Shown one piece after another: positions 1,692 to 18,582 of a stretch of DNA of 64,000 nucleotides. The DNA lies in contig CAVYWC010000007.1 in NCBI GenBank assembly GCA_963772045.1, forward strand, positions 438,023 through 502,022, read 5' to 3'. The DNA comes from an uncultured Acidobacteriaceae bacterium. GTDB lineage: Bacteria > Acidobacteriota > Terriglobia > Terriglobales > Acidobacteriaceae. The notes below the pieces were generated by a model. That model searched no databases. It saw nothing but the letters and a program-made list of their open reading frames with translations, and was not told the DNA's origin. Both the position numbers and the translations under genes were made by a program. Each line of letters begins with the position of its first letter. Position 1 is the first letter of the stretch.

Positions 1692-1695
1692 GAAA

Positions 1696-3732
1696 GTGAG
1701 GAAAGCGGTAGCACTGGCGCTATTTTGGATGGTGGCATTGGCGGCCAGCGCTCAGATATCCGGCAATGCCCTTGGAGCTCACGATATGGGGGGAAGTGGA
1801 ACATCCCCCACCGTGGGAGGCCTGCCCGCTTGCTACTTTTGCCATGCTCCTCATAACGGTGTCGGCGGGACTCAGGTCGGCCTTTGGTCGCAGAAACTTT
1901 CCACCGTCCAGAATTACACACTCTACCCACAAAGCCAAATTACGAACTTGGTTGAGGAACCGCTTCTCGGGGATAAGAGCAATCTTTGCTTGAGCTGTCA
2001 CGATGGGAGTGTTGCTCCCGGACAGACGATGCCGTGGGGTCCAATCAAAATGAGTGGATCGATGCAGTCCCAGGACCTCTTTGGCCGAGATCTGTCGACG
2101 GCTCACCCGTTCAATTTCAAGCTGCCGCTGCAAATGCCGCCAGATCAGAACCTGATTCCCACGGTCGTGAGTTCCGGTGCCACTGCAAACCCTCTAGTTC
2201 AGATGCCTGGCGGAAATGTGCAATGCGTAAGTTGTCACGAGCCTCACGTTCAAGGCCTTGACTCCTCGAACGCGTTTCTGGTGGTGGATAACACCGGCTC
2301 AGCACTTTGCCTGGCCTGCCATGTCTCGTCTCCCGAGTCGGCCGGCAGCATGATAGGGTTCAGACACGTGACGCCCTTTAACGTAGCTGCGGCGCAAAGC
2401 GCCCCGGCCAGCCAGTCCGGTCCCACTCAAAAGACCTACAATGCGTTGACCGCGTGGAGCAATAGCATCCACGCTCAGGCTGGCCAACAGGCAGCGAGAG
2501 CGGCCAACGTGGGTCCTCACGGAAGCGTTCGCAAGAACGGCTGTGAGTCGTGCCACAGCATGCACAAGGCCCAGGCGGGAGAGGCTCTTCTGTCTCCGGC
2601 AAAACAAGCTCTGACCAATGTAGATGCATCGACTCAGACCTGCTTAAACTGCCACAACGGCGGATCGACCATCTCTCCTCCGATTGGCAACATCTATCAG
2701 GAGTTTACGAAGAAGGGTCATCCTTTCCCGACGGGCACGAATACCCACCTAATGAACGAAGCTGCACTCTTGAACCGGAATCGCCACACTACCTGTGTGG
2801 ATTGCCATAACCCGCATGCTTCCCAGAAGACATCATCATTTCTCGTGACAACGATTCGTCCTTCCCAGGAGGGTACGGACGGCATTAGTGGTGTCGACGG
2901 TGTCACCGTAGTCAGCCCAGCCGTCAATCAGTACGAGGTTTGTTTCCGTTGCCACGCGGCCAGCTCGGGAAAGCAACGTCTGGCGATCTATGGTTATTCT
3001 CCGACCCGAATGGACACGACTGGCGATCCCTTTAATCTGGTGCCTCAGTTAAACAACAATTCGGTGTCCAGCCATCCGGTGGCTCATGTGCGGCAGAGCA
3101 AGTTTCCTCAGCCCAGTCTTCTGAAATTCATGTGGAACCTGGACGGTCACACTCAAGGGCGAATCATGGGTTCCCGCATTCTTTGCACGGATTGCCATAA
3201 CAGCGATGACAATCGGGAGTTTGGTGGTTCGGGGCCGAACGGACCTCATGGCTCGCAGTACGATCACATCCTTGAACGTCGTTACGAGTACAGCCAAGTT
3301 GCTTCTGCGGCTGGTCCGGGAACTACAATCCAAAGCCTTTTGCCGGTGGTTGTCGATCCGGGGGCCAATGGGCCCTACTCACTCTGCGCGAAGTGTCACG
3401 ACCTTGTGAACATTCTTTCCGATGCCAGCTTCCGCAAGCACTCGGTTCACATCAATGCGGGTTTCTCCTGTTCGGTATGTCACACGGCCCACGGAGTGGC
3501 GAAGGGTTCCGTGGGGCTGTCGGGCGATCGGTTGGTGAATTTTGATCTGAACGTCGTTGCGCGGAATGATGTCAGCCAAGGTCCGATCTCCTACAATCGG
3601 AATACTGGGACATGTACGCTCAAGTGCCACAACTTCAACCATAACCAGAATGGCACGGTAACCAACTCGCGAGGCAAAACGACACCGACTCAATTACAAG
3701 GGGTCTTGCCTCCGTGGGCGGTTAAGCATTGA
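1696..3732 (+). CDS. Secreted multihaem cytochrome c with 12 haem-binding motifs (11 CXXCH + 1 CX3CH)
   Basis: GTG start preceded by AAGGAG. Signal peptide MRKAVALALFWMVALAASA. Motifs: CYFCH, CLSCH, CVSCH, CLACH, CESCH, CLNCH, CVDCH, CFRCH, CTDCH, CAKCH, CSVCH and CTLKCH. All 24 Cys lie in these motifs. C..CH.PH pairs recur, as in doubled-CXXCH families. Confidence 0.9.
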   Translation: MRKAVALALFWMVALAASAQISGNALGAHDMGGSGTSPTVGGLPACYFCHAPHNGVGGTQVGLWSQKLSTVQNYTLYPQSQITNLVEEPLLGDKSNLCLSCHDGSVAPGQTMPWGPIKMSGSMQSQDLFGRDLSTAHPFNFKLPLQMPPDQNLIPTVVSSGATANPLVQMPGGNVQCVSCHEPHVQGLDSSNAFLVVDNTGSALCLACHVSSPESAGSMIGFRHVTPFNVAAAQSAPASQSGPTQKTYNALTAWSNSIHAQAGQQAARAANVGPHGSVRKNGCESCHSMHKAQAGEALLSPAKQALTNVDASTQTCLNCHNGGSTISPPIGNIYQEFTKKGHPFPTGTNTHLMNEAALLNRNRHTTCVDCHNPHASQKTSSFLVTTIRPSQEGTDGISGVDGVTVVSPAVNQYEVCFRCHAASSGKQRLAIYGYSPTRMDTTGDPFNLVPQLNNNSVSSHPVAHVRQSKFPQPSLLKFMWNLDGHTQGRIMGSRILCTDCHNSDDNREFGGSGPNGPHGSQYDHILERRYEYSQVASAAGPGTTIQSLLPVVVDPGANGPYSLCAKCHDLVNILSDASFRKHSVHINAGFSCSVCHTAHGVAKGSVGLSGDRLVNFDLNVVARNDVSQGPISYNRNTGTCTLKCHNFNHNQNGTVTNSRGKTTPTQLQGVLPPWAVKH

Positions 3733-5285
3733 TTCGCACAGAGCCCGACACTGTAAACTCGCATCCCCCCGGCGTGAGTGAAGTCCTGATTAGAAGCGGT
3801 TGCGCCAAAGTCAGCCTGCTTCGCCTATCGCAAAATTCCGTCACTCGAATTTTGGTTCTGATCTTGCTGTTGAGCACAGCGGCTCTGTGGGAAGCGAAGC
3901 AGATTTCGGCATTTTCAAACGATGAGATTTGGTGTCATCTGCGCACCGGGATGTGGATTCTCCAGAAGCATGCGATTCCTCACACGGGATTGTTCTCGCA
4001 GTTTTCAATATCCCGCTGGATTGATTTCAGCTGGCCGTATGATGCGTTGTGCGGGGCTGTCTACACCTTGTTGGGATTGAGAGCTTTTCCCCTGTTGCTC
4101 ATGATGTTCAAAGTGGCAGTGGGTGGAATTACTTTCCTGCTCGCGGGAGGGCGACGCAACTTCTGGTGGGCGGTAGTGCTCTCCGTATTAGCCCAGTTCA
4201 GCTTCTCTTCGCTGCAGCCGCTTCCAGAAGTGTTTTCGATCTGCCTTTTTGGATTGGCGCTGCATTGCATGCTTGAGGCTCATCGCAGCCATGACTTAGC
4301 TTATTTGCTGTGGCTGCCACCTTTGTTTTTGTTCTGGGCAAATCTCGATGCCCGGTTCGTTCTGGGCTTGCTGCTGCTCTTCATGTTCTTACTGGGCGAG
4401 ATCCTGGAAAGGGTGACGCGTCTATCGGGGAACTACAATTCCGGGTCTCCGCGAATTCCTCTCCTTTATCTTGTCGCGATCGTTGCGGGCTGTGGTATGG
4501 CGACAATGATCACGCCTTACTTTGTTCATCTGTTTCCCGCTGCCTTGCAGTCCTTGTATAGCTTCACACTGTTCAAGAACTTCTCCTTCACGGCTGCTAT
4601 GAGCTTTCGGCGGCCTGAACACTTTGTCCTAACCTTGCTGCTTTTTTCGGCCTGCCTCCGACTGGGACGGGAGCACTCCCGGGACATCTTCAAGATACTT
4701 CTGCTTGTCTGCTGGGCAGCTCTGGCATTTCGGGTTCAACGCGACAACTGGACAGTTGTTCTAGCCTCGATCGCGATTCTCGGCGGCGCTGTCGCAATGG
4801 ATGGCGATAAGATGGGTGCTCTCGGGCAGATAAGTGCGAAGAATGCCAATCTTTGCATTGCGGCCGGCGTGGCGACCCTGCTGACGCTTTCTTTCTTTTT
4901 GTTGCCCGGTAATCAACTCCTTGAGTCTCGACTCGATCGTATCCTGCCAGCCAAAGCGTGTGAGTACATACAAGAGAATCATCTCCCCGGTCCGCTGTTC
5001 AACGGATCCACGTGGGGAGGGTATCTGATGTGGAAACTTCCCGAGTATCCGGTCGCGATGGATGAGCGCTTGAACCTATATGGAGAGGAGTTCAGCGATG
5101 CGTACTTTGAAGTGATCATGGGCAAGCGGAGAATGGAAACATTGCCGGGCTTCGCTAGTGAGCAGATCGTGCTGCTGCCGGTGAACCTTTCGATGGCGAA
5201 GGCACTCACTACAATTCCAGCCTTGCAACAGCAATTCCGCGAAGTTTACCGAGACAAAGTCTCGATCGTCCTGGTGCGACGATGA
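3729..5285 (+). CDS. Polytopic inner-membrane protein, GT-C-glycosyltransferase-like (tentative), paralog A
   Basis: Many hydrophobic helices. There is an acidic motif in the first loop after TM1 (SNDEIWCHLRTGMWI), a shared WANLDARF motif and the C-terminal motif WGGYLMWKLPEYPVAMDERLNLYGEEF. The start is uncertain (TTG 3729 overlaps the cytochrome stop). Confidence 0.65.
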   Translation: MIRTEPDTVNSHPPGVSEVLIRSGCAKVSLLRLSQNSVTRILVLILLLSTAALWEAKQISAFSNDEIWCHLRTGMWILQKHAIPHTGLFSQFSISRWIDFSWPYDALCGAVYTLLGLRAFPLLLMMFKVAVGGITFLLAGGRRNFWWAVVLSVLAQFSFSSLQPLPEVFSICLFGLALHCMLEAHRSHDLAYLLWLPPLFLFWANLDARFVLGLLLLFMFLLGEILERVTRLSGNYNSGSPRIPLLYLVAIVAGCGMATMITPYFVHLFPAALQSLYSFTLFKNFSFTAAMSFRRPEHFVLTLLLFSACLRLGREHSRDIFKILLLVCWAALAFRVQRDNWTVVLASIAILGGAVAMDGDKMGALGQISAKNANLCIAAGVATLLTLSFFLLPGNQLLESRLDRILPAKACEYIQENHLPGPLFNGSTWGGYLMWKLPEYPVAMDERLNLYGEEFSDAYFEVIMGKRRMETLPGFASEQIVLLPVNLSMAKALTTIPALQQQFREVYRDKVSIVLVRR

Positions 5286-6793
5286 GTGTTCAGCCCGCAG
5301 CGTCTAGAGTTGACTCTGGAATCGCTCGGGAATTGGCCCAACTATTGGGAAGACCCATTGCGAAGGTGACAGCACTCGGGGCCTTATTTGCTTTGTTTTC
5401 CTTCACGACTTTGCTGAGCAAGGGCTACCTGGTTGACCCGGATATCTGGTGGCACTTGAAGGTTGGGGATTGGATCGTACAGCATCGGTCTGTCCCATGG
5501 GTAGGCATTCTTTCACGTACCGCCGCCAATCGGCCTTGGTTGGCGTACAGCTGGGCGTTTGAGGTAATCCTGTCCCGAGTCTATGCGTGGTTGGGACTGA
5601 TGGGCTTTGCCTACTTCGGCATCCTGTTATCCCTGCTAGTCCCGCTCGTGCTATTTGCCACCTGCTTTGCCCTTTCCGGTCGCTTCTGGCGATCGTGGCT
5701 GTTGACACTGGTTGGAACCTTTGCCTACGTTTTCGCCCTTTATCCCCGCCCCGTATTCTTCAGCATGATGCTGTTCAACGTCCTGGTGTATCTGCTGTTG
5801 CAGGCGCAACGCAGCAACCAGATCCGCGAGCTTTACTGGTTGCCGCTGATATTCATGGTTTGGGCGAATCTTCACATCCAGTTCATTTACGGGCTGGCCA
5901 CCCTGGGGCTTTTTGTTGTCGTCACGGCTGCAGTTCGGCTCGTTTCACGCCGGTCCTTCAATTCAAGTGCGTTCCGGACGTCCTCGTTGTCATTGTCCAG
6001 ATTGTCGCTAATCCTAGCCGCCAGCGCGGCGGCGTCTTGCATCGGCCCGTATTCTTACCGGCTCTTCGGAGTAGTCTTTGCATACTCCCGCGCAACACAG
6101 ATTTACTTCGTCGTTCAGGAGTTGCTGTCTCCGACATTCCTCAGCTTCACCTGCTTCATTCTCCTTTTTGTCGTTATGGCTGCTTTCTATGCGGCGGGGT
6201 CGCGAAAGCAGATCGACCTGTTTCAGCTGCTCCTGCTGGTCATAGGTTCGCTTTCGGCCTTACGTATGGTTCGAGACGCGTGGTTTGCCGCGATTCCAGC
6301 CATTCTCTTACTGGCGGATGCTCCTGCGGACTCCACCGGCCACGATGCGGCTTTCAGTCGCTGGCAACTCTTGTCTATTACTGTTGCGATGGTATTCGTA
6401 GTCTTCTTGCTGTCGACGAATACGGGGTTTACTCCTCGTGGAGTCGATTACACCGTGAGTATGGAGTATCCGGTCGACGCCGCGAATTTCGTGCGCAGGA
6501 TCGAGCCACCCGGGCCAATCTACAATGACTTCGATTGGGGTGGCTTCCTTACTTGGTATCTTCCCCAATATCCGGTTTCGATCGACGGTCGTACTGATCT
6601 TTACGGAGACAAGTTCGTGGCGGATTATTTTAATTTCAGGTTCGGCGATCGAACCGAAGGCGATCCGCAACTTGATCAGGCCGGCACGGTATTGCTTAAG
6701 AAAGACGCGCCGCTTGCCAAATTGCTGAAGCAGGACCCACGTTTTCGCTGCGTTTATGAAGACGGCCTTGCCGATGTTTTCTTACGCAACTGA
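5282..6793 (+). CDS. Polytopic inner-membrane protein, GT-C-like (tentative), paralog B
   Basis: ATGA start/stop overlap with paralog A. It aligns with A at DPDIWWHLKVGDWI, WANLHIQF and WGGFLTWYLPQYPVSIDGRTDLYGDKF, and has many TM helices. Confidence 0.7.
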   Translation: MSVQPAASRVDSGIARELAQLLGRPIAKVTALGALFALFSFTTLLSKGYLVDPDIWWHLKVGDWIVQHRSVPWVGILSRTAANRPWLAYSWAFEVILSRVYAWLGLMGFAYFGILLSLLVPLVLFATCFALSGRFWRSWLLTLVGTFAYVFALYPRPVFFSMMLFNVLVYLLLQAQRSNQIRELYWLPLIFMVWANLHIQFIYGLATLGLFVVVTAAVRLVSRRSFNSSAFRTSSLSLSRLSLILAASAAASCIGPYSYRLFGVVFAYSRATQIYFVVQELLSPTFLSFTCFILLFVVMAAFYAAGSRKQIDLFQLLLLVIGSLSALRMVRDAWFAAIPAILLLADAPADSTGHDAAFSRWQLLSITVAMVFVVFLLSTNTGFTPRGVDYTVSMEYPVDAANFVRRIEPPGPIYNDFDWGGFLTWYLPQYPVSIDGRTDLYGDKFVADYFNFRFGDRTEGDPQLDQAGTVLLKKDAPLAKLLKQDPRFRCVYEDGLADVFLRN

Positions 6794-7297: not shown

Positions 7298-7470
7298 GGG
7301 GGAACACCTTCGGGGCGAACGAGCGTCCCAATACCAACTATAAGCATTATCGACCGTACGCGGGCCTTGTCAAGCTTACCTAAGGAACCGGGGATCGTAA
7401 TCGGCGAGTCTCGGAGCTTTGTCCGTACGTAAACATGACCCTCTTTCCACAATCTTTATCGCCCAAGTCT

Positions 7471-8142
7471 CTACATTTGCGGTTTAGCTGACTTGGTGCC
7501 ATCGGCGACATGGAGGTGCTGTTTCGCCTGCGCGATCATTTTTTCGACTTGGTCCCGCTTCGGGTGATCCGGATGCAGCTTGAGCAACTTCTCCCACATC
7601 TCGATTGCGCCCTGCGGGTCTGACTTGGTCCGCCATTTGACCATGCCGAGGTTGAAGAGCGCGTTCGCGAATCCGGGATCAATGGAGATGGCCTGCTCGA
7701 GAGTCGCGATGGCTTTGTCGGCGTTTCCCTGATAGTAATAGGCCGAAGCCAATTGGGTGAGTGCGGTGGGGTTTGCACTCTTGACCGCCAGTGAACGTTC
7801 GTAGTATTGCTGCGCTGTCTGGGGCTGTTGCGCCGCCAGATACACGTCCCCGATTTTCGTCAGCAGCCCATCGTCATTTGGATGTGTCTTCAATTCGGTC
7901 AACAGAGGCGCAACTTGCTGATCGGCCATATGTGCAAGCTGAGCGGGCGTGATCTGAGACGGGTCAAGCGGAACTTTCGGAGCATTCGCTGGCTGCACAA
8001 CCTGTGCGGGCTGATTCACCGGGCCGGGCGTCGGTCCGTGAAGCAGATAGCCAACCGCGATTCCGATTACCAGGCACAATGCCAACAACACATAGGCTTG
8101 CGTGCTGGTCCATTGTTGGCTAGCTTCTGTTTTGCTGCCCAT
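7471..8142 (-). CDS. Membrane-anchored TPR protein (CcmI/CcmH-C/NrfG-like architecture), paralog 1
   Basis: GGAG RBS. One N-terminal TM helix (AYVLLALCLVIGIAVGYLL), a Pro/Gln-rich linker, then about 3-4 TPRs. By eye it is roughly 40 percent identical to 13039-13755 over about 145 aa. Confidence 0.75.
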   Translation of the reverse strand: MGSKTEASQQWTSTQAYVLLALCLVIGIAVGYLLHGPTPGPVNQPAQVVQPANAPKVPLDPSQITPAQLAHMADQQVAPLLTELKTHPNDDGLLTKIGDVYLAAQQPQTAQQYYERSLAVKSANPTALTQLASAYYYQGNADKAIATLEQAISIDPGFANALFNLGMVKWRTKSDPQGAIEMWEKLLKLHPDHPKRDQVEKMIAQAKQHLHVADGTKSAKPQM

Positions 8143-8149
8143 CCGTTTC

Positions 8150-8543
8150 TCCTAGCAGACAATTTCGAAAGTCAAAATCTCGATAGCGCAGAGGTTGCGC
8201 AGTGCGCACCTCGTCCAACCGCACGCCCGGCTGGCTACCGGGCACAAGTTCGCGGATCGGCATGGACGATACTAGGTGCTCACCGCGAAATTCCTCCCCA
8301 TGGCCGGCTGTGTCGCGAGTGGCAACGGACCAGACAATTCGTGCGGAGTCAAAACGGGAGCTAACCACACGCACCGTCCGCGAGATTCCACCGTGACGTA
8401 TTGGGGATCGCCTTCCAGAACCACGACAGGAACATTCTGCTTGGATAGTCATAGGCCGCGGCCAATCCCGCTGGTCTGGCGCCGATCATCACGGCTTTGA
8501 ATCTATCCTGATCCATCAGAACAAGTTGAGGTGCAATTCCCAT
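8150..8543 (-). pseudogene. Eroded remnant of an NAD(P)/FAD-dependent oxidoreductase (amine-oxidase-like)
   Basis: The N-terminal fragment KAVMIGARPAGLAAAY carries a broken GxGxxG motif (G to R). A frameshift leads into a second frame holding HGGISRTV, SSMPIRELV and LRYRDF. Only about 0.4 kb remains of what I expect, from memory of this family, to be a gene of roughly 1.3-1.5 kb. Confidence 0.5.
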
Positions 8544-8680
8544 GCCACCCCTCTGGACCAGTTAAGTACCTGATAATGCAGGGTAAAACCCTACTTCGTG
8601 GCTTCCAGGACCGGGTTAAAACACACGCTCTAATGAGGATAAAGGCACGTCGTCTTCTGATCAGGATTGAAGCCCCAAAC

Positions 8681-10054
8681 TTAGTCTCGCTTGGAATTTA
8701 AGTAGTTGGAGTAGTAGCGATTTGCTTCCTGGACGTTTCCCGCCTGCCAGTAGTAGCGAGCCATGTCCCGATTTGCAAGGGGAAAATCAGGATACTGGTC
8801 GAGCAGTTGTTTGAGCAGCGGGTACGACTCCGGCATTCGATTTGCCGTCTGATAAGCCTCTGCCAGATTGTATTTGGCCATTACGTTTGTGGGTGCAGTC
8901 TCAACCGCTCGACGGAACAACGAGATGTCATCTCGCCAGATCCGCAGGTCGGAGCGACTACACCAACACAAAACTACTCCAACCGCAGTCCATGCCACCG
9001 ACCGGGCAACAGTGAAGCGCACGCCACAAAGCCATTCGGCTGCGATGATCGCTAAGCCAACCGATGGCAGGTACAAATAACGATCGTGGGTATAGTCATT
9101 GTAGGTTAGGTAACGAATGGACAGAGCTGGGAGAAGGGTGATCGCAAACCAGGCGAGGCCAAATTGAACGTTGGCTGAGCTCTTGCGAATGATCCATACC
9201 AAACTCACTGCGACTGCAAGTAGCAGTAGCAGCGGCCATGGGGATCGTCCGATAGGGACATCATAGGAAACACTGAGATGTACCGGCCAAATGAGATGCC
9301 CGGCGTATGCCACCAGCAAGCGGGGCCACGTCAGAATCATCGCGGATACGCTCATGCCGGCGGGTCCTCCGGTTACCGGGTTCCCTAAAGCCATGGTTCG
9401 AAGCACGAAATAGAGAAGAACGGAAGGAAAGTAGGGAAGCACATTCACGATGGCGGGTTTGAGTCCCGACCGGGTCCATTCGTAAACGAGGATCAGCGCT
9501 GGAGCCACGATACCGGTTTCTTTGCTGAACATCGCCAACGTGGCAAACAGAATCGAGGGAAAACTGATCGGGCCTTTCCGCTTAACATAAAAGAAAACGC
9601 TAAGCGTCAGAGAGGTCGTGAGAAGTAGATCGCCACTGGATGAAAGCCACGCTACAGCCTCAGTGTGAATGGGATGGATTGCAAACAAGGCGGTGGCGAG
9701 TAACGTTGTCCTAAGATCGTTGATCAAACCGCGGAGCAATAAGAACACGCAGGCGGTCGCTAACAGGTGAGCCACTATTGAAGCGAGATGCCAGATGGCG
9801 CCGGGAGGCCCAAGAATCGCAAACACCAATCGGAACCAAAGCAAGAACATCGGACGATAAAAAAGAGAAGGCTGCTTTTGCGAATTTGCCCAGAGGTGCG
9901 CGGTAAAATATCCAGGAACGTGGCTCCATGACTGGAGACGCTGATTCAACACGAGTTGTTCATAGTCATCGTAGACCGGCGAATAGTGAATCTCTGGCAG
10001 AAAAAGCAAGAAAGTGCCCACCAAAATGGCTGCCAGTTGCAACCGTAGGCGCAT
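8681..10054 (-). CDS. TMTC/DUF1736-like GT-C membrane protein with C-terminal TPR repeats
   Basis: Acidic first-loop motif YSPVYDDYEQLVLN. The FAIHPIHTEAVAWLS motif is typical of TMTC/DUF1736 proteins. There are about 10 TM helices and C-terminal TPRs (AEAYQTANR..., ARYYWQAGNVQEANRYY). The ATG lies 1 nt after the upstream stop (TAGaATG). Confidence 0.75.
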   Translation of the reverse strand: MRLRLQLAAILVGTFLLFLPEIHYSPVYDDYEQLVLNQRLQSWSHVPGYFTAHLWANSQKQPSLFYRPMFLLWFRLVFAILGPPGAIWHLASIVAHLLATACVFLLLRGLINDLRTTLLATALFAIHPIHTEAVAWLSSSGDLLLTTSLTLSVFFYVKRKGPISFPSILFATLAMFSKETGIVAPALILVYEWTRSGLKPAIVNVLPYFPSVLLYFVLRTMALGNPVTGGPAGMSVSAMILTWPRLLVAYAGHLIWPVHLSVSYDVPIGRSPWPLLLLLAVAVSLVWIIRKSSANVQFGLAWFAITLLPALSIRYLTYNDYTHDRYLYLPSVGLAIIAAEWLCGVRFTVARSVAWTAVGVVLCWCSRSDLRIWRDDISLFRRAVETAPTNVMAKYNLAEAYQTANRMPESYPLLKQLLDQYPDFPLANRDMARYYWQAGNVQEANRYYSNYLNSKRD

Positions 10055-10055
10055 T

Positions 10056-12893
10056 CTACTTCACCGTCACCGGCAAATTGATGGTGGCACTTGTGCTTCC
10101 GCTCGTGGCCACTAAGGTCAGATTGTAGCTGCCCGCCGGAGTACCGGGATTTGTGGTGGTCACACTTCCTGAACCCCCGCCGCAACCTCCGAGCCCCACG
10201 AGGAACGCGGCGATCGCAAGCGTTGTCAACCGCGCTGTCTTTCTCACCTGCTTTTTGCTGCTTGCTTCGGAGATCACGAGTATGCCGGCGATTGCGATCC
10301 CAAAGGGGAGGCCTGGCCAAGATTTCGGCCATCTCGGAGTCGACGGTGACAGGAAAGAAACCTGGTTCGAAGCCGTGGTGTTCACCGTCACATTCGCAGT
10401 TGCGGGCGCGCTGCTCGAGATTTGAACAGTGCTGGCCGAACAGGAGGCTCCAAGCATGGACGATGGTGTGGTGCAGGTGAAGGTCACACTGCCGGTGAAG
10501 CCGCTGACGACGTAGATCGTCACTGGAATTTTCGCTGATTGACCGGCAGTGATGGTCGTCCCGGTTGCACCCTGATCTGCCGACAGGGTGAAGTCTGCGG
10601 CCACTACAGTAATCGAGATCTGCACTGACGCCGCGGCAGAATAATCGGCACTTCCGTCCTGGTCCGCCTCTACCACGATGGTGCCTGTTCCGGTGACTGT
10701 CAGCGTGCTACCGCTGATGGTTCCGGGGCCTGAAATGACCGTGTATGTGATCGGTAGTCCGGAACTTGCCGTTGCCGTCAGCGTCACCGGTGCGACCCCA
10801 TTGGGCAATGTCCCGGGATTCGGGAAGGTAATGGTCTGCGCTGCGGCGTTTACGGAGAAGGTTTGGCTCACGGGTGAAGCGGCTGCGAAGAAACCGTTGC
10901 CGCCTTGCACCGCCTGAACCGTAACCGAGCCGGGTGCCGTGAACGTCAGTAGGTTGCTGGCGCTCAAAGTTGCAGGTCCCGAGATCACGGTAAAGCTCAC
11001 CGGAAGGCCTGACGTTGCGGTTGCACTCAGCTCCAGCGGAGTGCCGTAGCTCTGAGCCCCGGGATTTGGAAAGTTGATCGTCTGCGTCGCAACGATGATA
11101 GAAGTGAGTGGAAGCGTGACCGATTCGCTGGTCAAGAAGTTGCTATCGCCGCTGTACTGCGCATAGACGTTATCCGTTCCTGTGGTGGACAAGCCGCTGA
11201 CGGTCACCGTCGTAGAGCTGGTCGCCTGCAGCAGCACCGACTCCGCCGTCATTGCATAATTTGCCGTGATGATGTCCAGCAGACCGTCCCCGTTAAAATC
11301 GCCGACAGCAATGCCGTCCGGAGCACCTCCGGCGGTCGGGGCCAATGGTGCAGCCGTGAAAGTCCCGTTCCCGTTGCCGAGGAAAACCGTGACGGTATCG
11401 ACTGAGTAGTCCGCCGTGGCGAGGTCGAGGTTGCCGTCATTGTTAAAGTCTCCAGCCACGATCGCAAACGGACCGGACCCGGTGGCAACTGGGCTGCCAG
11501 TGGCAGCCGTGAAAGTTCCGTCGCCATTGCCCAGCAGAATTGTTACGGTGTCGTCATAGTGGTTCGCGATGGCGAGGTCGGGAACACCGTCCCCGTTAAA
11601 ATCACCTGCGGCGATCGCGATGTCGTTATTGCCGGTCGGATAGCTGTTTCCCACGGCGAAAGTTCCATCTCCATTGCCTAGCAGGATCGTCACCACATAG
11701 TTGGCCGGCGAGTTGGTATTCGAACTGGTGACCGCCAAATCCAACTTGCCGTCGCCGTTGAAATCCATGGCGACCATACCCTCCGGATTTACCGACCAGG
11801 CCGGCACAGTTGCGGACGAACCGACCGCAAAGGTTCCGTCGCCATTGCCCAGCAAAATCGTCACTACATATCCGGAAGCGTTATTGCTTATGGCCAAGTC
11901 CGGAACTCCATCGCCGTTGAAATCGCCTACTGCGATGGACGCCGCGTAAGCCGCGGCTGGAAGGGTAGCAGGGATCGTGAACGTGCCGTCGCCATTGCCC
12001 AGCAGGATGGTTACGCCATTGCTTCCTGAATTGGCAAATGCAATGTCCAAATTGCCGTCGCCGTTGAAGTCGGCAGCGACAGCTCCTTCCGGATTGGCAC
12101 CTACCGAATATGTCGTAGCTTGCGCGGTAAAAGTTCCATCACCGTTGCCCATCATGACGGTGGCTGTCCCCGAACCGTTCAGGCTGGCCACCACGTAATC
12201 CAGACGGCCGTCGTTGTTGAAATCGCCCACTGCGATGGCTTGATTCTGAGAGGTTGCGGCGGGGCTGGATGTACTGGCAAAGGAAAATCCTGTTGTCGGC
12301 GCGACTGGGGGCGCTAGAGAAACCGAGCCAAGGCTGGCGCTAGTAGTGGCATCGAAAAACGACACGCTGCCAGTTGGCGTAACCGTGCCGGTCGTTGTGA
12401 CCGCGCCGCCAGCCCAGACGGTCGCATTCAGGGCATAGGCGCCAGTCGCCCCAGTGGCACTGATCGTGGTTGTCGAGGGTAGCAGGCCGCTCACTGTCAA
12501 ACTGGCAGCTGACGAAGTGCTCGCGGCGTAAGGGTTCGTGCCTTGGAAAACCGCCGCAATATTGTACGTTCCGGGACCGAATATCTTGTGGATGCTCGCG
12601 GTTCCCGCTGCCGATCCAGAAGCCATGATCCATGCGCTGCCAAGGATCGCAGCGCCCTCGCAGTACGTCGCGCTGGCGTTGCAGAACACCACCTGGCCCG
12701 ACGTCACGGCCGTTCCGCCGGATATTACAGTAGCCCTAACGGTAACCGCGGTTCCAGTGGTTACGCTACTGGAGGACAAAGTCAGAGTGGTAGTGGTTGG
12801 GCTGGGCTGCGCCCACATCGCGGGAGCTGCAAGCAGGATCAACAGCATTCCGCATACGATCCGACGCCCAAGAGAATCTACACAAGTCAGCAT
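10056..12893 (-). CDS. Giant secreted FG-GAP (integrin-alpha-like 7-blade propeller) + Ig-like repeat protein with unusual C-terminal double hydrophobic segment
   Basis: Signal peptide followed by Ig-like Thr/Ser-rich segments. Seven repeats of the type GDFNGDG.(L/P)D... + VTILLGNGDGTF lie at about 11244-12251. At least three Ig-like segments follow (QTINFPNPG..., QTITFPNPG..., DFTLSAD...). The protein ends with a TM helix, a basic patch, a second hydrophobic stretch and CGGG. Confidence 0.85.
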   Translation of the reverse strand: MLTCVDSLGRRIVCGMLLILLAAPAMWAQPSPTTTTLTLSSSSVTTGTAVTVRATVISGGTAVTSGQVVFCNASATYCEGAAILGSAWIMASGSAAGTASIHKIFGPGTYNIAAVFQGTNPYAASTSSAASLTVSGLLPSTTTISATGATGAYALNATVWAGGAVTTTGTVTPTGSVSFFDATTSASLGSVSLAPPVAPTTGFSFASTSSPAATSQNQAIAVGDFNNDGRLDYVVASLNGSGTATVMMGNGDGTFTAQATTYSVGANPEGAVAADFNGDGNLDIAFANSGSNGVTILLGNGDGTFTIPATLPAAAYAASIAVGDFNGDGVPDLAISNNASGYVVTILLGNGDGTFAVGSSATVPAWSVNPEGMVAMDFNGDGKLDLAVTSSNTNSPANYVVTILLGNGDGTFAVGNSYPTGNNDIAIAAGDFNGDGVPDLAIANHYDDTVTILLGNGDGTFTAATGSPVATGSGPFAIVAGDFNNDGNLDLATADYSVDTVTVFLGNGNGTFTAAPLAPTAGGAPDGIAVGDFNGDGLLDIITANYAMTAESVLLQATSSTTVTVSGLSTTGTDNVYAQYSGDSNFLTSESVTLPLTSIIVATQTINFPNPGAQSYGTPLELSATATSGLPVSFTVISGPATLSASNLLTFTAPGSVTVQAVQGGNGFFAAASPVSQTFSVNAAAQTITFPNPGTLPNGVAPVTLTATASSGLPITYTVISGPGTISGSTLTVTGTGTIVVEADQDGSADYSAAASVQISITVVAADFTLSADQGATGTTITAGQSAKIPVTIYVVSGFTGSVTFTCTTPSSMLGASCSASTVQISSSAPATANVTVNTTASNQVSFLSPSTPRWPKSWPGLPFGIAIAGILVISEASSKKQVRKTARLTTLAIAAFLVGLGGCGGGSGSVTTTNPGTPAGSYNLTLVATSGSTSATINLPVTVK

Positions 12894-13038
12894 TCGCGCC
12901 CCTTGTATCTAGACCAACGTTCACCTCGAACTCTGGGCCGTAAATCCACCATGACGCTCAGCTGGTAAACGGCCTGGCGGAATCTTCGACTACTCTGTCT
13001 TAAAGAAATTATGCTAATCGGCCGTTTCGTGCGCAACA

Positions 13039-13755
13039 CTACTGCTGCACCTGTTTTCCAGAACTGCCGGGAGTGATCCCTTCGTGTTTTTTGGCCTCGG
13101 CGATCAGTTGCAGCACCTTGTCTTTGGCCTCGTAGTTTGGGTTGGTGTCCAACAGCTTTTGCCACGTGGAGATCGCTGCATTCGCATCCATCTTGCCTTG
13201 CCATTCGACAATGCCCAAATTAAACAAAGTGTTGGGCTTATTCGGCTCGTACGAAAGCGATTTCTTGAACTCTGAGATGGCGCTGTCGGCATCTCCCGCA
13301 TACCAGGCCGCCGTAGCCAGGTCGGTGCGCACGCTGGTGTCGGCGGGCTGCAGTTTCAGAGACTGCAGGTAATACTGGATCGCGATCGGGTATTGCTGGG
13401 CATCGTAGTAATAGTTGCCAATGCTGGCCAGCAGTCCCGGGTCATTCGGATCAGATCTGAGTTTTTGGATCAGTGGAGCCGCTTGCGCGTCGGCCATCCG
13501 TTTCAGATCTTGGGGGCTGGGCATCTGCTGTTGCGGCATGGCCGAGCCCGGGACGCCCGAACCCGGTACAGCGGCAGCCATCTGCGCAGTTTTGGCAGAG
13601 GCGGCACTGGACTCGGATCCCCGGAATAGATAGCCCAGAGCCACTCCTACGAGAAGACAAATGGCAGCCATCACGTACACCTGCCCTACCGTCCAGCCTC
13701 CTGATGCTCCGCTCTTTTCCCCAGGGCTCGTCGTAGTCACATTCTTGTCTACCAT
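13039..13755 (-). CDS. Membrane-anchored TPR protein (CcmI/NrfG-like architecture), paralog 2
   Basis: ATG 13755 is preceded by GGGAG. The ORF-track extension to 13974 lacks coding character. There is a TM helix (VYVMAAICLLVGVALGYLF), a linker and TPRs. It is a paralog of 7471-8142. Confidence 0.75.
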   Translation of the reverse strand: MVDKNVTTTSPGEKSGASGGWTVGQVYVMAAICLLVGVALGYLFRGSESSAASAKTAQMAAAVPGSGVPGSAMPQQQMPSPQDLKRMADAQAAPLIQKLRSDPNDPGLLASIGNYYYDAQQYPIAIQYYLQSLKLQPADTSVRTDLATAAWYAGDADSAISEFKKSLSYEPNKPNTLFNLGIVEWQGKMDANAAISTWQKLLDTNPNYEAKDKVLQLIAEAKKHEGITPGSSGKQVQQ

Positions 13756-14091
13756 CTCGCAGCTCCCTCGCCGAACACAAATCGAATGTTTCCCAGCCAG
13801 CGTACCATTGCACGCCGCTGGCCACGAATGTTCTTTGATTTTGAACTTTGTTTTCAGGGGCTTACGGGAAAAATATCGTGAAGAGAACGCCCTGTAGCTC
13901 AACGGCGGGTCATTATTCGCACCAGCTGTGTTTTTTGCCCGAGTGGTGCCCGCCATCAGCCGACTAGCAAGCATGCATTCGTTTTCGGAGAGTTCTGGAA
14001 GGCTTCGCTTCGCCGGGTTCCGGCCGGGGCGATATGTGGTGCTCTGCCAGAATCCCTAGCCTGCAGCTGCGAACGCGAGAAATCTTCGAGA

Positions 14092-14670
14092 CTAATGGGA
14101 AGTGGATGGCGTGGCACAAGAAATTGTGCCTTCGCGCAGGGCATAGTCGCAGCGCCAGCGGAAACCATTGGCGTCATGCTGCCCATATCCCCAGACTCGC
14201 ATCTGCAGCGTGTTTTGCTCGATGCGCGAAGATTCGACAAAGACGTGGTCGTTCTCACGAAGCGCCGGTCGGAGTTCGACGGGAATGAGGCGAAGCAGCG
14301 TGGCTTTGTCAATCATTACGACATTTTCCGGGTCGGCTACAGGAAACAGCAGAGCCCGCGATGTTTTCCTACCGAGATACTCGGTAACCATGATGAATTC
14401 ATTGCCCGACCAGGCTACGGCTGTGACGCCAAAGTAGTCGCAGAGCTTCTGCACTCGGCCATTGGCATTGTCGCTAAGCCATAGCGAATGAAACGTGCCG
14501 ATGAAATCTGACGCTGGAGCGTTAGGATTTACGTTGCGAACGACGAACCGTTTGTCCGGAGAGATCAGTTCGTCGACCTTCGGAAATAATACGAACTGGG
14601 CCAATGCGGATTCGGTGCAGGCTACCGCACTCAACAGTAGAAGTGCAAGCTTCATCCGGGGCCACAGCAT
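14092..14670 (-). CDS. Secreted hypothetical protein
   Basis: GGAGG RBS 7 nt upstream. Signal peptide MLWPRMKLALLLLSAVACTESALA. No recognisable domain. Confidence 0.6.
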   Translation of the reverse strand: MLWPRMKLALLLLSAVACTESALAQFVLFPKVDELISPDKRFVVRNVNPNAPASDFIGTFHSLWLSDNANGRVQKLCDYFGVTAVAWSGNEFIMVTEYLGRKTSRALLFPVADPENVVMIDKATLLRLIPVELRPALRENDHVFVESSRIEQNTLQMRVWGYGQHDANGFRWRCDYALREGTISCATPSTSH

Positions 14671-15109
14671 TCCGCATCCTCCCTTTCGTAATTAGAATGC
14701 GCTCATCTCGGAGTGCATAGTGATGGCGATCACGCTGGGATTACTTCGGTTTGCCCGTTTCTTCTGTAGATATCAGGAGTGAAAGAAAACCCTGTCAGAG
14801 AGCTTAGAACCAAGGGCTTCCTCTAGACTTGTTGCCGCATTTTACCGCCGGTCGTGCGTGCAGGACAGCCGTCTAATCACTGACTCTCGCATCTCGAACA
14901 CACTTCCGTCTTCGGGGGTTCTCATGAATTCCGCAATCATTGATTAGCCGATCGAACGTCCTCGTTTCCGGATATCCTTCGCCACGCTCCGGCGATCTTC
15001 CGCCGGAGAAGGCCCACGTTGGTGGCGGACACTGGTGGCTGGACGTGCTTCTCGCAGCGAAGATCCAGCGATTCAGCGTTGTTGCAACGGTGGGTCTGGC
15101 GATCAGATC

Positions 15110-15589
15110 TCACTTCCGCCCATCGCCCGCGGCTACGCTGTCCTCTCGGGACTCGGGAGTGCTGAGTTCATAGGCGACGTGTTTCCGCACCATTTCCCAT
15201 TCCGAGCGCAGCATCATATCCTTGATGCTGAACTTACTTTCGTGCCTGGCATCATCGAGGCGGACGGCGATCTCGTTCTTGCGCAGGCGAAAATCGATGA
15301 CGTCGGCGAGCGGGACAAGGTCCTCCGCTGATCGGCCAACGATCACGTACACCACTTTGTCGGAAACCAGTGTGTATTCGGGGCAGACATCGGATCCCAT
15401 CGGTGCGGTGGATCCCGACATGGTCACCATCAAGGCGTGGCGAGAGGGCAGGCAGTCGCCCATGTGCATTCTTACCACGGTCCCACGCTGGTAAACTCCG
15501 AACGGACCCGCCCAGGCGATCTGCAGGCTACAAACGGCCAGAATTGGCCACAAGAAATACCGACAAGGGGTGTTACCGAACGTTTTCAT
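15110..15589 (-). CDS. Secreted hypothetical protein
   Basis: Signal peptide (...FLWPILAVCSLQIAWA). The start overlaps the stop of the VWA gene by 17 nt, which suggests an operon. Confidence 0.6.
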   Translation of the reverse strand: MKTFGNTPCRYFLWPILAVCSLQIAWAGPFGVYQRGTVVRMHMGDCLPSRHALMVTMSGSTAPMGSDVCPEYTLVSDKVVYVIVGRSAEDLVPLADVIDFRLRKNEIAVRLDDARHESKFSIKDMMLRSEWEMVRKHVAYELSTPESREDSVAAGDGRK

Positions 15590-16511
15590 AATAGTAGCCT
15601 TTCCGGCAGTGAAACCGTAGGTTCAGGTTGTGTTTGGGAAGAATACGCAGCGAGTGGAATCCTCGCGATCGCTCTGGCAGCGCATAGGTCACAACATAAG
15701 AAGTGCGCAGATCGGCGAGGATGGCCTGCAGAATATTGACTGTATTATCCCGTGCGGAGAACGACCGGCCTCCCGTAGCCTCGGCCAATTGTTGCAGAGT
15801 GATGGCTCCACGCGTATCTGAGAGGGGACTGGTATTGACCGCGTACAGCAGGGCACCGCTGGCCAGCACGTCCGACAGAGCCTCATGGCCGGAGGCCGTG
15901 CTGATGGTGTCGTCGCCGTCAGAAAAAAGAATTATGACATCGCGCACAGCGGTAGTTTGTTGGCTGGAGAGAACGCCAGCGGCGTAGGCCAAGGTGTCGA
16001 AGAGCGGAGTCGGCCCGGCAGGTTCAATGGAGAGAAGTTTGGCCTCGAGTTGGGGGCCGCGACAGTTGCCCGCACAAAGAAGCAGCGGCTTCAGGCCGGA
16101 GAAAGACGCGACGGAAAGATTACCGCTGCCCGCTCCGTCTTCCTGCGAAGTGATCCGCTCGACATCTCTGACAGTTTCGTGAAAGTACGGTCCCATGGAC
16201 TCGCTGGTGTCGACCAGGACGATGATGTGCAGTGCGGTTTCCTCGGTTCGGACGAGGCTGCGAAAGTCACGGATGACATTGCCGCTGTCGACAACCGCGA
16301 AATCGTCGCGGCTCACGGTCTCGATAGAACGGTCAGCCGCGTCGGTAGCAAAGAATACGACCCGCACTTCGGAAGCGCTGACGTGATAACTCACCGATTG
16401 CGCGACACACCTGTTTTCAAGAATGAAAACCAACGAACAAACGGAAAGTAAGAGCCCGCATGAACAGCCCTGCCGATGAGACAGCATTGCCATTGCTGGG
16501 AACTTCGGCAC
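15573..16511 (-). CDS. VWA-domain protein of the acidobacterial VWFA-related type (TIGR03436-like)
   Basis: N-terminal signal/anchor. MIDAS motif VLVDTSESM. The motifs ILFSDGDDT and LAEATGG are present, and the C-terminus is typical (...YVVTYALP...RKGYYYE). Confidence 0.8.
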   Translation of the reverse strand: MPKFPAMAMLSHRQGCSCGLLLSVCSLVFILENRCVAQSVSYHVSASEVRVVFFATDAADRSIETVSRDDFAVVDSGNVIRDFRSLVRTEETALHIIVLVDTSESMGPYFHETVRDVERITSQEDGAGSGNLSVASFSGLKPLLLCAGNCRGPQLEAKLLSIEPAGPTPLFDTLAYAAGVLSSQQTTAVRDVIILFSDGDDTISTASGHEALSDVLASGALLYAVNTSPLSDTRGAITLQQLAEATGGRSFSARDNTVNILQAILADLRTSYVVTYALPERSRGFHSLRILPKHNLNLRFHCRKGYYYENVR

Positions 16512-16649: not shown

Positions 16650-18452
16650 TCAGGTGATGCTCGCTTCTGTGTAGGTGCCGTACACCTGCCGCAAAGCATC
16701 GCAGATTTCGCCCACAGTCGCGTAGGCGCGGACGGCATCGACGATGAATGGCATGGTGTTAACGGATGAGATGTTGCCATTCGATCCCGACCTCGGATCG
16801 CCGGCCGCCGCTCTTTTGAGTGCATCGAGAGCGCGCTGAACTGCTTGGTTGGAGCGCCGGGCGCGCAGAGCTTTCAGCTTGGCTGTCTGCTGGCGGGCCA
16901 CGGTCTCACCAATGTAGAGGATGTGCGGCGGCTCTTCCTCAATCGCGAACTCGTTCACGCCGACAATGATTTTCTCTCGCGCTTCGACCGCACGTTGATA
17001 TTGATACGAAGATTCGGCAATCTCTTTCTGCGGATATCCGCGCTCGATCGCCTTCACCATGCCGCCCATGGCATCGAGTTTGCCGAAATAATCGAGGGTG
17101 CCATTTTCCATCTGCAGCGTCAGATTTTCCAGGAAATAAGACCCACCCAGCGGATCGACCGTCTGCGCGACTCCGGATTCGTAAGCGATGATCTGCTGCG
17201 TACGAAGTGCGATGCGCGCCGCTTCTTCCGTTGGCAGCGCCAGAGCCTCATCGTATGAATCCGTGTGCAGCGACTGCGTTCCCCCGAGCACAGCGGCGAG
17301 CGCCTGGATCGCGACACGCGCGATGTTGTTCATCGGTTGCTGCGCCGGCAACGATACTCCTGCAGTTTGGGTGTGGAAGCGCATCAGCCAGGTGCGCTGG
17401 TTTTTCGCACCGAACCGATCTTTCATCACGCGATACCAGATTTTCCGAGCGGCGCGATACTTCGCGATCTCCTCGAAGAAATCATTATGAGCATTGAAGA
17501 AGAAGCTCAGCCGTGGTCCAAATTCGTCGACATCGAGGCCCCGGCGTCGAGCCCATTCCACATATTCAACGCCGTCGTACAACGTGAACGCCAGTTCCTG
17601 CAGAGCTGTCGAGCCGGCTTCGCGGATGTGATATCCACTGATCGAAATCGTGTTGAATCGCGGGGTGAACTTTGAGCCGAACTCGAACGTATCGATGACG
17701 AGCCGCATCGAAGGCGCAGGAGGGTAGATGTATTCCTTCTGCGCGATGTATTCCTTCAGAATGTCGTTCTGAATCGTTCCGGAAATTTTCTTCCAGTCCG
17801 CGCCCTGCTTTTCCGCCACCACCAGATACATGGCCCAGAGCACCGATGCCGGAGAATTAATCGTCATGGAGACGGTAGTTTTTTCCAGGTCGATGCCGTG
17901 GAAAAGGATTTCCATATCTTCCAGCGAATCGATGGCCACGCCGCACTTGCCTACTTCGCCCTCGCTCGCCGGATGGTCGGAGTCGTAGCCCATCAAGGTA
18001 GGCAAATCGAACGCGACTGAGAGCCCACTGCCACCGTGTTCCAGCAGATATTTGTAGCGCTGGTTCGTTTCTTCCGGCGAGGCGAAGCCGGAGAACTGAC
18101 GCATGGTGAAAAGCTTGCCGCGGTAACCGGTCGCGTGAATGCCGCGCGTGTAGGGCGGCTGGCCGGGATAGCCGAGATATTTCTCTTCGCTCCAGTCTGC
18201 CGGAAGATCGGCCTGAGTGTAGAGTCGCCGGATCGGCACGCCGGAAATCGTGGTGAAGCGTGCGTGCCCGCGCTCGTCGAGATTCACGCCCGTGGGCGAA
18301 CCGATCGGCCGCTCGGGAGCCTTTTCGAGCGTGGGTTCGAGCGTCTTCTCAGCCCACGTCTTCTCGGTTTCGGAGGGATGCCGGTTCTCGAAAACATCGG
18401 CGATCGGATTTTCGGCAATGTTTGCCGGCGTCTTGGGCTGCTGTTTATCCAT
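16650..18452 (-). CDS. Acyl-CoA mutase large (substrate-binding) subunit, isobutyryl-CoA-mutase-like signature
   Basis: Methylmalonyl-CoA mutase family motifs: [57 protein letters not shown]. No B12-binding domain is present. The ATG at 18452 (MDKQQP...) is preferred over the ORF-track start at 18524. Confidence 0.85.
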
Positions 18453-18582
18453 GCGTTCCCCAGTGCTTCTGCTTTGATGATAGGGAAGGCGATTCGGAGT
18501 AGCAAGGCGCAGAGCGCGGATCAAAACGACCGGTCGGTTTGAATTCGAAAACCCTCACATGACACGAGGGTGCGGAGGAAAT

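Follow-up and report, generated by a model that had tools for sequence, protein, structure and literature searches.

Does the tight junction between a gene for an integrin-like surface protein and a gene for a membrane glycosyltransferase, found in an uncultured Acidobacteriaceae bacterium (GenBank assembly GCA_963772045.1, contig CAVYWC010000007.1, positions 438,023 to 502,022), mark a dedicated pair of substrate and enzyme? The window, by which we mean the whole 64,000-nucleotide (nt) stretch analyzed, carries both genes on its minus strand: the upstream one encodes a 945-amino-acid (aa) protein with an FG-GAP propeller and immunoglobulin (Ig)-like domains, and the downstream one a 457-aa glycosyltransferase of the GT-C fold with C-terminal tetratricopeptide repeats (TPRs). 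A first-pass annotation had proposed that the two are translationally coupled and form a dedicated pair, with the TPRs recognizing the beta-sandwich domains of an adhesin. Our analysis leads to a less exclusive answer, which we favor tentatively and with somewhat less than even confidence: the 457-aa protein would be a periplasm-facing, polyprenyl-phosphate-sugar-dependent, TMTC-like GT-C enzyme that most probably O-glycosylates Ser/Thr-rich envelope proteins tethered to the inner membrane, with the FG-GAP protein as a likely but nonexclusive client. An enzyme-client relation is plausible, and a dedicated pair improbable.

The 457-aa protein can be modeled with confidence as a GT-C fold enzyme. 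Its AlphaFold2 (AF2) model (pLDDT 93.6, pTM 0.92, from a 51-sequence alignment) consists of approximately 11 membrane helices and then, at residues 376 to 456, the five helices of the TPRs, and Foldseek searches of this model against the PDB recovered only GT-C enzymes (ArnT 5f15 as the best structural match, along with AglB, STT3, ALG12/ALG9, PglB, Pmt1/2/4, AftD, and DPY19), with a probability of 1.0 throughout and TM-scores of 0.3 to 0.48. Neither Pfam, checked to an E value of ≤10, nor NCBIfam returned a match to DUF1736, PMT, or PMT_2 in the membrane domain, and PDB sequence searches with the protein and with its family profile recovered TPR proteins only and were uninformative for the membrane domain; the family link is therefore drawn from the fold, the motifs, and the matches of homologues. 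These homologues number 362 and are mostly from Terriglobales; several have been named protein O-mannosyl-transferase by JGI, some match PMT_2 or PMT, and 8 of 51 match Pfam PMT_2. The broader TMTC-like/PMT_2-TPR group has more than 559 relatives in representative genomes, often several per genome. The C-terminal tail matches TPR_19 (35.3 bits against a cutoff of 25; E value, 1.5e-8), and its best PDB sequence matches are the TPRs of OGT. We infer that the N terminus is cytoplasmic and the TPRs are periplasmic, because the positions of basic loops and the requirement that the DD, KET, and DRxxY motifs share one side of the membrane both point to this orientation; an odd number of transmembrane (TM) helices precedes the tail, which is the reason that it is predicted to be periplasmic.

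Comparison with the motif catalog of the human TMTC1-4 proteins gives this enzyme its closest motif-level resemblance to a characterized family. TMTCs carry seven motifs, M1 to M7 (DD, SHKSYRP, RxD, KE(T/Q)xxT, DW, PxxP, and ERxxY), of which M4 has been modeled as binding phosphate and metal and the Arg of M7 is a phosphate-binding residue (PMC7801869). M1 (D29 D30, placed directly after TM1), M4 (KET at residues 178 to 180), and M7 (DRYLY at residues 324 to 328, with a conservative change of E to D) are kept in the 457-aa protein; M2 is partial (YRP at residues 66 to 68, lacking the His-Lys), as is M6 (P309 alone), while M3 reads SGD and M5 was not found. Positions that are invariant in the 51 homologues include D29 and D30, R67 and P68, P128, E132, W136, E179, P309, H323, D324, R325, and Y328, and K178 is nearly so. 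The HPIHTEAVAW stretch at residues 127 to 136, pointed out in the first-pass annotation together with the acidic DD of the first loop, is likewise invariant or nearly invariant across these homologues. It corresponds to the FAxHPxHTE motif at the end of TM3: human TMTC3 reads KSSVIASLLFAVHPIHT at residues 118 to 134, and LFAIHPIHTEAVAW of the 457-aa protein is almost identical to LFAVHPIHT at TMTC3 residues 126 to 134.

The annotation had also called the enzyme DUF1736-like, and this label does not survive. In TMTCs, HPIHT sits at TM3, outside DUF1736, which is the loop of approximately 75 residues between TM7 and TM8, and the human proteins match DUF1736 (PF08409) at E values of <1e-19 (PMC7801869). 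The corresponding loop of the 457-aa protein has only 17 residues (256 to 272), and none of the 120 homologues listed has PF08409 among its precomputed domains. TMTC-like GT-C is therefore a fair name for the protein, and DUF1736-like is not. The claim that the enzyme has the architecture of the eukaryotic TMTCs holds for the GT-C fold, for M1, M4, M7, and HPIHTE, and for the predicted periplasmic TPR tail, but not for DUF1736 or for the length of the tail, which comprises only approximately 2.5 TPRs.

The upstream protein has the composition that the annotation described, namely, a propeller together with Thr/Ser-rich Ig-like domains. It begins with a signal peptide and continues with two Big_3_5 Ig-like domains, a seven-blade FG-GAP propeller, three beta-sandwich domains, and a C-terminal anchor; Pfam matches are to FG-GAP_3 (2.5e-68, in seven stretches) and Big_3_5 (3.5e-13, in two stretches), and the AF2 model is all beta (pLDDT 71.5). 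The consensus end of the signal peptide in its orthologues (...AATAAWAQPS) is conserved, and the GDFNGDG-type propeller repeats are invariant in 19 orthologues. Ser and Thr together make up 29 to 37% of the Ig-like parts and 16% of the propeller, compared to 8 to 17% in other proteins of the window. Foldseek placed integrin alphaV chains in the top eight positions (E value, 8e-13) and alphaIIb at ranks 12, 16, and 18, with global TM-scores against integrin ectodomains of only ∼0.2 because the chain is a flexible, multidomain one. Integrin alpha subunits and bacterial integrin-type FG-GAP proteins (PMC3192720) share with it the seven-blade FG-GAP propeller, the Ig-like "leg" domains, and a membrane anchor. 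The 945-aa protein differs from integrin alpha subunits in having two Big_3_5 domains ahead of the propeller, in lacking a beta-subunit partner, and in its anchor, where a lipobox-bearing TM hairpin (NF058595) takes the place of the single TM helix.

This anchor matches the NCBIfam model for a putative C-terminal anchoring domain, "lipo-invert", and is built of a first TM helix, a basic loop (KKQVRKTAR), a second TM helix ending in a lipobox-like LGGC, and a 41-residue beta-hairpin. The Cys of LGGC (Cys904, positions 10182..10184) is invariant in the 19 orthologues. In the AF2 model the strands after this Cys (residues 921 to 944) reach a pLDDT of ∼80, compared to <35 for the preceding 70 residues, a hint, but no proof, that the last Ig-like domain is completed by the hairpin; the anchor resembles an internal lipoprotein signal inserted into that domain. 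Used by itself as a query for homologues, the 124-residue tail gave at least one match, and an exhaustive search of representative sequences revealed a large family (516 representative clusters at an E value of ≤0.001) in which the tail is always at the extreme C terminus, in proteins of up to ∼2,000 aa. We found no paper on the NF058595 tail family. Taken together, sequence features and model support a view of the 945-aa protein as an exported, membrane-tethered, integrin-alpha-like propeller with Ser/Thr-rich beta-sandwich domains, and a protein that is exported and anchored in this manner would be topologically accessible to a periplasm-facing GT-C enzyme.

The fold, the motifs, the logic of the topology, the gene arrangement, and the phylogenetic distribution are what we observe, and from them we infer donor, sugar, acceptor, and the relation of enzyme to substrate as follows. 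The 457-aa protein would be an inner-membrane GT-C enzyme of the TMTC-like/PMT_2-TPR group, with ∼11 TM helices, a cytoplasmic N terminus, a catalytic DD in periplasmic loop 1, and a periplasmic TPR tail of 2.5 repeats. The phosphate of a polyprenyl-phosphate-sugar donor would be bound by KET and DRxxY, which appear to be suitably placed for this, and the most likely activity would be the transfer of a single sugar from undecaprenyl-phosphate-sugar to Ser or Thr residues of exported envelope proteins held at the inner membrane. The 945-aa protein, with its predicted Sec export, its tether of a C-terminal TM hairpin and lipobox, and its Ser/Thr-rich beta-sandwiches, would be a likely client, probably among others. 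We favor this reading because DD, YRP, HPxHTE, KET, and DRxxY match TMTC M1, part of M2, the TM3 motif, M4, and M7, respectively, and because genes for GT-C enzymes or for polyprenyl-phosphate-sugar synthesis are frequent in the vicinity of FG-GAP orthologues.

The same structural data could also be read in favor of a nonprotein acceptor such as lipid A, lipopolysaccharide core, a capsular polysaccharide or exopolysaccharide, or another envelope glycolipid, modified in an ArnT-like manner from a polyprenyl-phosphate-sugar donor while the TPR tail docks to an envelope assembly machine. That ArnT is the best structural match, that many GT-C families are lipid and glycan transferases, and that an Acyl_transf_3 gene and TPR-membrane proteins adjoin GT-C orthologues at two retrieved loci (L082 and L083; loci are numbered here with the prefix L) would all fit such a role. 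However, the Foldseek scores for ArnT, STT3, PglB, and Pmt are all similar, and the pilin glycosyltransferase TfpW, which acts on a protein, likewise models best on ArnT; FAxHPxHTE, KET, DRxxY, and YRP are motifs of the TMTC protein O-mannosyltransferases, and the GT-C/TPR fusions studied so far (TMTC and TfpW) are tied to protein acceptors. We therefore regard a nonprotein acceptor as unlikely.

Whether the FG-GAP protein is the acceptor, and an exclusive one, depends on how the gene arrangement is understood. The TAG stop of the upstream gene and the ATG start of the downstream gene are indeed separated by one nucleotide (GTGAAGTAGaATGCGC), and GGTGAAG, a Shine-Dalgarno-like element in a position to serve the downstream start, lies within the upstream coding sequence. 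A consensus scan of positions 7300..14200 found no promoter or terminator between the two genes, with sites no more numerous than in shuffled sequence. A search for RNA evidence of co-transcription led to at least 16 sequencing runs, all labeled as DNA or as being of unknown type. Gaps of ≤10 nt occur in 11 of the 28 co-directional neighbor pairs of the window, so that a 1-nt gap is ordinary here; it is an argument that the genes are co-transcribed but not that they share a particular function. Translational coupling, as first proposed, has the junction and the Shine-Dalgarno-like element on its side, but spacing that is routine in this DNA supports co-transcription only. Judging from the sequence, the two genes are best explained as a co-transcribed pair of recent origin in one species of Terriglobales (Acidobacteriota). 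As it stands, the junction is of the ordinary operon type, and the envelope-gene island in which this uncultured soil acidobacterium carries it is prone to rearrangement.

A survey of genomic linkage from the side of the enzyme yielded several observations that weigh against a functional tie between the two proteins. Beyond the window, the abutting arrangement is seen only in further assemblies of this species, in which the enzyme is 100% identical. In a sister lineage with a 73% identical GT-C enzyme (L081-L084), the flanking regions are collinear with those of the window, yet the GT-C gene has the opposite orientation and lies beside transposase remnants, with the FG-GAP orthologue convergent and 6.8 kb away; the remnants (HTH_Tnp_1; ∼6900..7950 in L082) sit exactly at the boundary of the inversion relative to the window, which suggests an inversion mediated by an insertion sequence (IS) in that lineage. 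Another lineage at 73% identity (L100) has the two genes convergent and 4.4 kb apart, and no FG-GAP gene was seen in the flanks available for a lineage at 75% (L085-L087 and L101). Approximately 17 further lineages of GT-C orthologues (43 to 61% identity) have other upstream genes, which encode a GDSL-like lipase with TPRs (four lineages), a DUF900 hydrolase, multihaem cytochromes, a CHB_HEX_C/cytochrome protein, TPR proteins, or NHL-propeller proteins. Among ∼140 loci that hold more distantly related members of the family, taken from representative genomes and from metagenomes, similarity to the FG-GAP protein was found in the flanks of only two, and in neither was it adjacent. The gene pair, in the abutting and translationally coupled form in which it was first proposed, is thus not conserved: it is confined to one species and is convergent, distant, or absent in relatives at 73 to 75% identity and in the ∼17 further lineages.

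The four lipase genes (L102, 2894..4585; L106, 97..1845; L107, 5175..6920; L122, 3575..5263) are co-directional with the GT-C gene, directly upstream of it, and encode proteins of ∼560 to 585 aa that have a GDSL-like lipase/acylhydrolase region and TPRs, making this protein a commoner close partner of the GT-C enzyme than the FG-GAP protein. The NHL-propeller proteins are of interest for another reason, as those next to GT-C orthologues of 56 to 57% identity in L001 and L096 (1,130 to 1,145 aa) end in the same invert-tail as the 945-aa protein, and a search of 2.0 Mb of retrieved loci with a hidden Markov model of the tail found invert-tails only beside close orthologues of the 457-aa enzyme. 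These observations allow a broader conjecture, to which we assign a low probability, that the short-TPR, TMTC-like clade is a bacterial counterpart of the domain-specific O-mannosyltransferases (TMTCs for cadherins, TMEM260 for IPT domains) and glycosylates the beta-sandwiches of inner-membrane-tethered FG-GAP and NHL "lipo-invert" propeller proteins; the shared anchor would then hold substrate and enzyme in one membrane.

The view from the FG-GAP side is more favorable to a link. Nine lineages were found to have orthologues of the 945-aa protein, which are 54 to 75% identical and all end in the tail; in six of the nine a GT-C gene lies within 7 kb of the FG-GAP gene, with three GT-C families represented. 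The orthologous GT-C gene is ≤7 kb away in four (the window, L100, L082, and L181), and in L181 it is convergent at a distance of ∼0.4 kb, with two paralogues nearby. The immediate convergent neighbor is instead a 665-aa PMT/PMT_2-type GT-C enzyme in L180 and an 859-aa YfhO-type GT-C enzyme in L185, the latter weakly resembling PgfM2 and accompanied by a split family member nearby. In L182 and L183, a GT2 glycosyltransferase most similar to PgfS/ArnC is encoded near the FG-GAP orthologue, together with a GtrA-type protein in L182. The cluster in L182 (11880..20811) comprises genes for SIS, the PgfS/ArnC-like GT2, an epimerase, the GtrA-type protein, several methyltransferases, a TPP enzyme, HAD, and NeuB, and that in L183 (17111..20790, cut at the end of the locus) comprises SIS, GT2, methyltransferase, and epimerase genes; such a set amounts to an apparatus for the synthesis of an unusual polyprenyl-phosphate-linked sugar. 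L184 has no GT-C, GT2, or GtrA gene beside the FG-GAP orthologue, and no GT-C gene of the family occurs within 9 kb of the orthologues in L182-L184.

How much this proximity means is limited by the abundance of GT-C genes. The window itself holds a second, unrelated one, and 60 secondary members of the family of the 457-aa enzyme were counted in 1.37 Mb of flanks; since GT-C density is high and poorly known, the family clusters, and the lineages are related, no sound co-localization statistic can be given, and proximity among nonindependent lineages is weak, suggestive evidence. Further points that count against a client relation are that no gene for a polyprenyl-phosphate-sugar synthase or flippase, and no equivalent of the GT2, GtrA, and epimerase genes of L182 and L183, is present in the 64-kb window, and that the TPR domain is very short for reading a specific substrate. 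It could therefore be that the adjacency is accidental, the GT-C enzyme serving other acceptors, either in general periplasmic protein O-glycosylation or among other proteins encoded in the island, with the FG-GAP protein no substrate at all and the 1-nt junction simply left behind when the locus underwent a recent inversion or deletion. The restriction of the abutting pair to this species, the change of orientation and distance in every related lineage, the IS remnants beside the GT-C gene in L081-L084 and a pseudogene remnant beside that of the window, the diversity of upstream neighbors, and the frequency of both GT-C genes and tight junctions are all as expected on this account. What it explains less readily is the repeated presence, beside FG-GAP orthologues, of glycosylation genes from nonorthologous families (TMTC-like, PMT type, YfhO type, and GT2 with GtrA), a pattern that is hard to obtain from simple inherited synteny. 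We consider accidental adjacency a substantial possibility, although it is not the account that we prefer.

The strict form of the original proposal, a dedicated and co-evolving pair in which the TPRs recognize the beta-sandwiches of this particular adhesin and translational coupling sets the stoichiometry, fares less well. The junction with its Shine-Dalgarno-like element, the occurrence of orthologous GT-C and FG-GAP genes within 7 kb of each other in four lineages, and the precedent of TfpW and its pilin PilA would all be in keeping with it. The coupling is nevertheless confined to one species, and in three of the four lineages that retain both orthologues the genes are convergent, which makes co-translation impossible there; in addition, most GT-C orthologues have other neighbors and no FG-GAP partner nearby, and the FG-GAP orthologues in L182-L184 have no nearby family enzyme. 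The proposed role of the TPRs as substrate readers is likewise weakened, because ∼2.5 repeats offer little for specific recognition. We judge a strict pair to be improbable, and the nonexclusive client relation remains the reading that we prefer. Glycosylation of the integrin-like protein by this enzyme, if real, would provide a first function for the very large and uncharacterized bacterial TMTC-like/PMT_2-TPR group, and domain-directed O-glycosylation of beta-sandwich adhesins would then be older than the eukaryotes.

The surroundings of the pair record recent change. Directly downstream of the GT-C gene is a decayed flavoprotein remnant of the PRK07208/amine-oxidase-like type that contains frameshifts and lacks residues ∼72 to 254 and those beyond 320; it was recognized by tblastn with the intact flavoproteins of 497 to 523 aa that adjoin GT-C or FG-GAP orthologues in L098, L100, and L180. 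The presence of this decayed gene indicates that the locus has been reshuffled recently, which also counts against a client relation. With both orthologues retained in four lineages and convergent in three of these, the co-directional abutment is most simply a derived state. The flavoproteins belong to NCBIfam NF005545 (790 bits) and show weak N-terminal similarity to UDP-galactopyranose mutase, and the 60-aa open reading frame (ORF) called at this place in other assemblies is a fragment of the flavoprotein.

The surrounding envelope-gene island (606..3732 on the plus strand and 13039..16511 on the minus strand) is partly syntenic with relatives and encodes an NHL-repeat protein, a 678-aa multihaem cytochrome, TPR proteins of 223 and 311 aa, and a VWA protein of acidobacterial type; it is bordered by a methylmalonyl-CoA mutase gene (16650..18524). 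Two tandem plus-strand genes with a 4-nt overlap (3729..5285 and 5282..6793) encode proteins of 518 and 503 aa that have no Pfam or NCBIfam match, and their coding strand is strongly T rich (AT skew, -0.275). Both proteins are homologous to the N-terminal ∼560 residues of TPR proteins of 760 to 816 aa that flank GT-C orthologues in L082, L085, L098, L183, and L185. We considered whether these TPR membrane proteins and the 503- and 518-aa proteins are hidden GT-C paralogues and rejected this, as the profile-profile alignment covers the TPR part only. Coordinates of the features described are collected in Table 1.

Table 1. Features of the gene pair and of related genes; positions refer to the window unless another locus is named.
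Feature	Positions	Strand	Basis or remarks
945-aa exported envelope protein gene	10056..12893	-	ORF and translation, Pfam, AF2, Foldseek
Putative Sec-type signal peptide, residues 1-29, ...AAPAMWA/QPS (slash, cleavage site)	12807..12893	-	Direct sequence reading
FG-GAP beta-propeller, ~residues 216-560	11214..12248	-	Pfam stretches; AF2 strand pattern, pLDDT 80-90
NF058595 "lipo-invert" putative C-terminal anchoring domain, residues 831-945	10059..10403	-	NCBIfam, 72 bits against a cutoff of 37
Shine-Dalgarno-like GGTGAAG (putative function)	10059..10065	-	Within the 945-aa coding sequence, 5-11 nt 5' of the GT-C ATG; direct sequence reading
Single spacer nucleotide	10055..10055	-	Separates TAG stop from ATG start
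457-aa GT-C fold glycosyltransferase gene, short C-terminal TPR domain	8681..10054	-	AF2, Foldseek, homologues
DD motif, D29 D30, first periplasmic loop	9965..9970	-	Invariant in 51 homologues; TMTC motif M1
HPIHTEAVAW, residues 127-136, periplasmic end of TM3	9647..9676	-	P128, E132, W136 invariant
KET, residues 178-180, TMTC M4	9515..9523	-	K178 nearly invariant, E179 invariant (51 homologues)
DRYLY, residues 324-328, TMTC M7 (ERxxY)	9071..9085	-	D324, R325, Y328 invariant
Predicted periplasmic TPR tail, residues 376-456, five helices, ~2.5 repeats	8687..8929	-	Pfam TPR_19, AF2 helices
Decayed PRK07208/amine-oxidase-like flavoprotein remnant, directly downstream of GT-C	8174..8522	-	tblastn, E value down to 7e-18
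Second, unrelated GT-C gene, 581 aa	55892..57637	+	Pfam PMT_2, E value 7e-7; weak similarity to "cell surface glycopolymer formation" family
NHL-propeller invert-tail gene, L001	4343..7777	+	Co-directional, ~220 nt upstream of GT-C
NHL-propeller invert-tail gene, L096	1819..5208	-	Divergent from GT-C, with a 147-aa gene between

Among characterized systems, the TMTC1-4 proteins (CAZy family GT105), which are O-mannosyltransferases of the endoplasmic reticulum for cadherin EC domains, share with the 457-aa protein the GT-C fold, ∼11 TM helices, a cytoplasmic N terminus, and extracytoplasmic TPRs, as well as DD and YRP in loop 1, FAxHPIHTE at TM3, KET in loop 3, and (D/E)RxxY before TM10; the candidate acceptor considered here is, like theirs, anchored in a membrane and built of beta-sandwich domains. 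The bacterial protein differs in lacking DUF1736, with its much shorter TM7-TM8 loop, in not conserving the His-Lys of SHKSYRP, the Arg of RxD, or DW, and in having ∼2.5 TPRs instead of a long array, and its donor would by analogy be undecaprenyl-phosphate-sugar instead of dolichyl-phosphate-mannose.

The first-pass annotation had stated that glycosylation of an adhesin encoded next to its enzyme has not been demonstrated for bacterial TMTC-like proteins. This stands insofar as we found no paper on the function of any bacterial TMTC-like protein, but it overlooked precedents in Pseudomonas aeruginosa and in streptococci. The Pgf proteins of Streptococcus mutans (PgfS, PgfM1, PgfE, and PgfM2) modify the adhesins Cnm and WapA, and the membrane glycosyltransferases are thought to be supplied with polyprenyl-phosphate-sugar by a GT2 enzyme (PMC5856776, PMC12041528). 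As described there, Pgf involves extracytoplasmic O-glycosylation of Thr/Ser-rich adhesin regions by polytopic membrane glycosyltransferases, as we propose here, and PgfS is the closest match of the GT2 encoded next to the L182 FG-GAP orthologue; the streptococcal system is a Gram-positive one, with YfhO-type membrane glycosyltransferases that lack TPRs and modify disordered linkers, and the window itself has no GT2, GtrA, or epimerase genes.

TfpW of P. aeruginosa is an inner-membrane GT-C enzyme with 11 predicted TM helices, a cytoplasmic N terminus, DDX in periplasmic loop 1, and C-terminal periplasmic TPRs; its TPRs match OGT best and its membrane part models best on ArnT. The gene for its substrate, pilA (a group IV pilin), directly precedes tfpW, and loss of the enzyme abolishes pilin glycosylation. 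Going by this description, the 457-aa protein resembles TfpW in its 11 TM helices, its loop-1 DD, its predicted periplasmic TPRs, its best matches to OGT and ArnT, and the position of its gene downstream of a candidate substrate. TfpW is larger (646 aa, with a larger TPR domain) and attaches D-arabinofuranose to a type IV pilin, whereas the upstream gene here encodes a propeller/Ig protein, and the pilA-tfpW order is conserved across species, whereas the order of the 945-aa and 457-aa genes is not. That a GT-C enzyme can be encoded beside the surface protein that it glycosylates is already known from TfpW-PilA and streptococcal Pgf, and TfpW is the closest functional precedent for the 457-aa enzyme.

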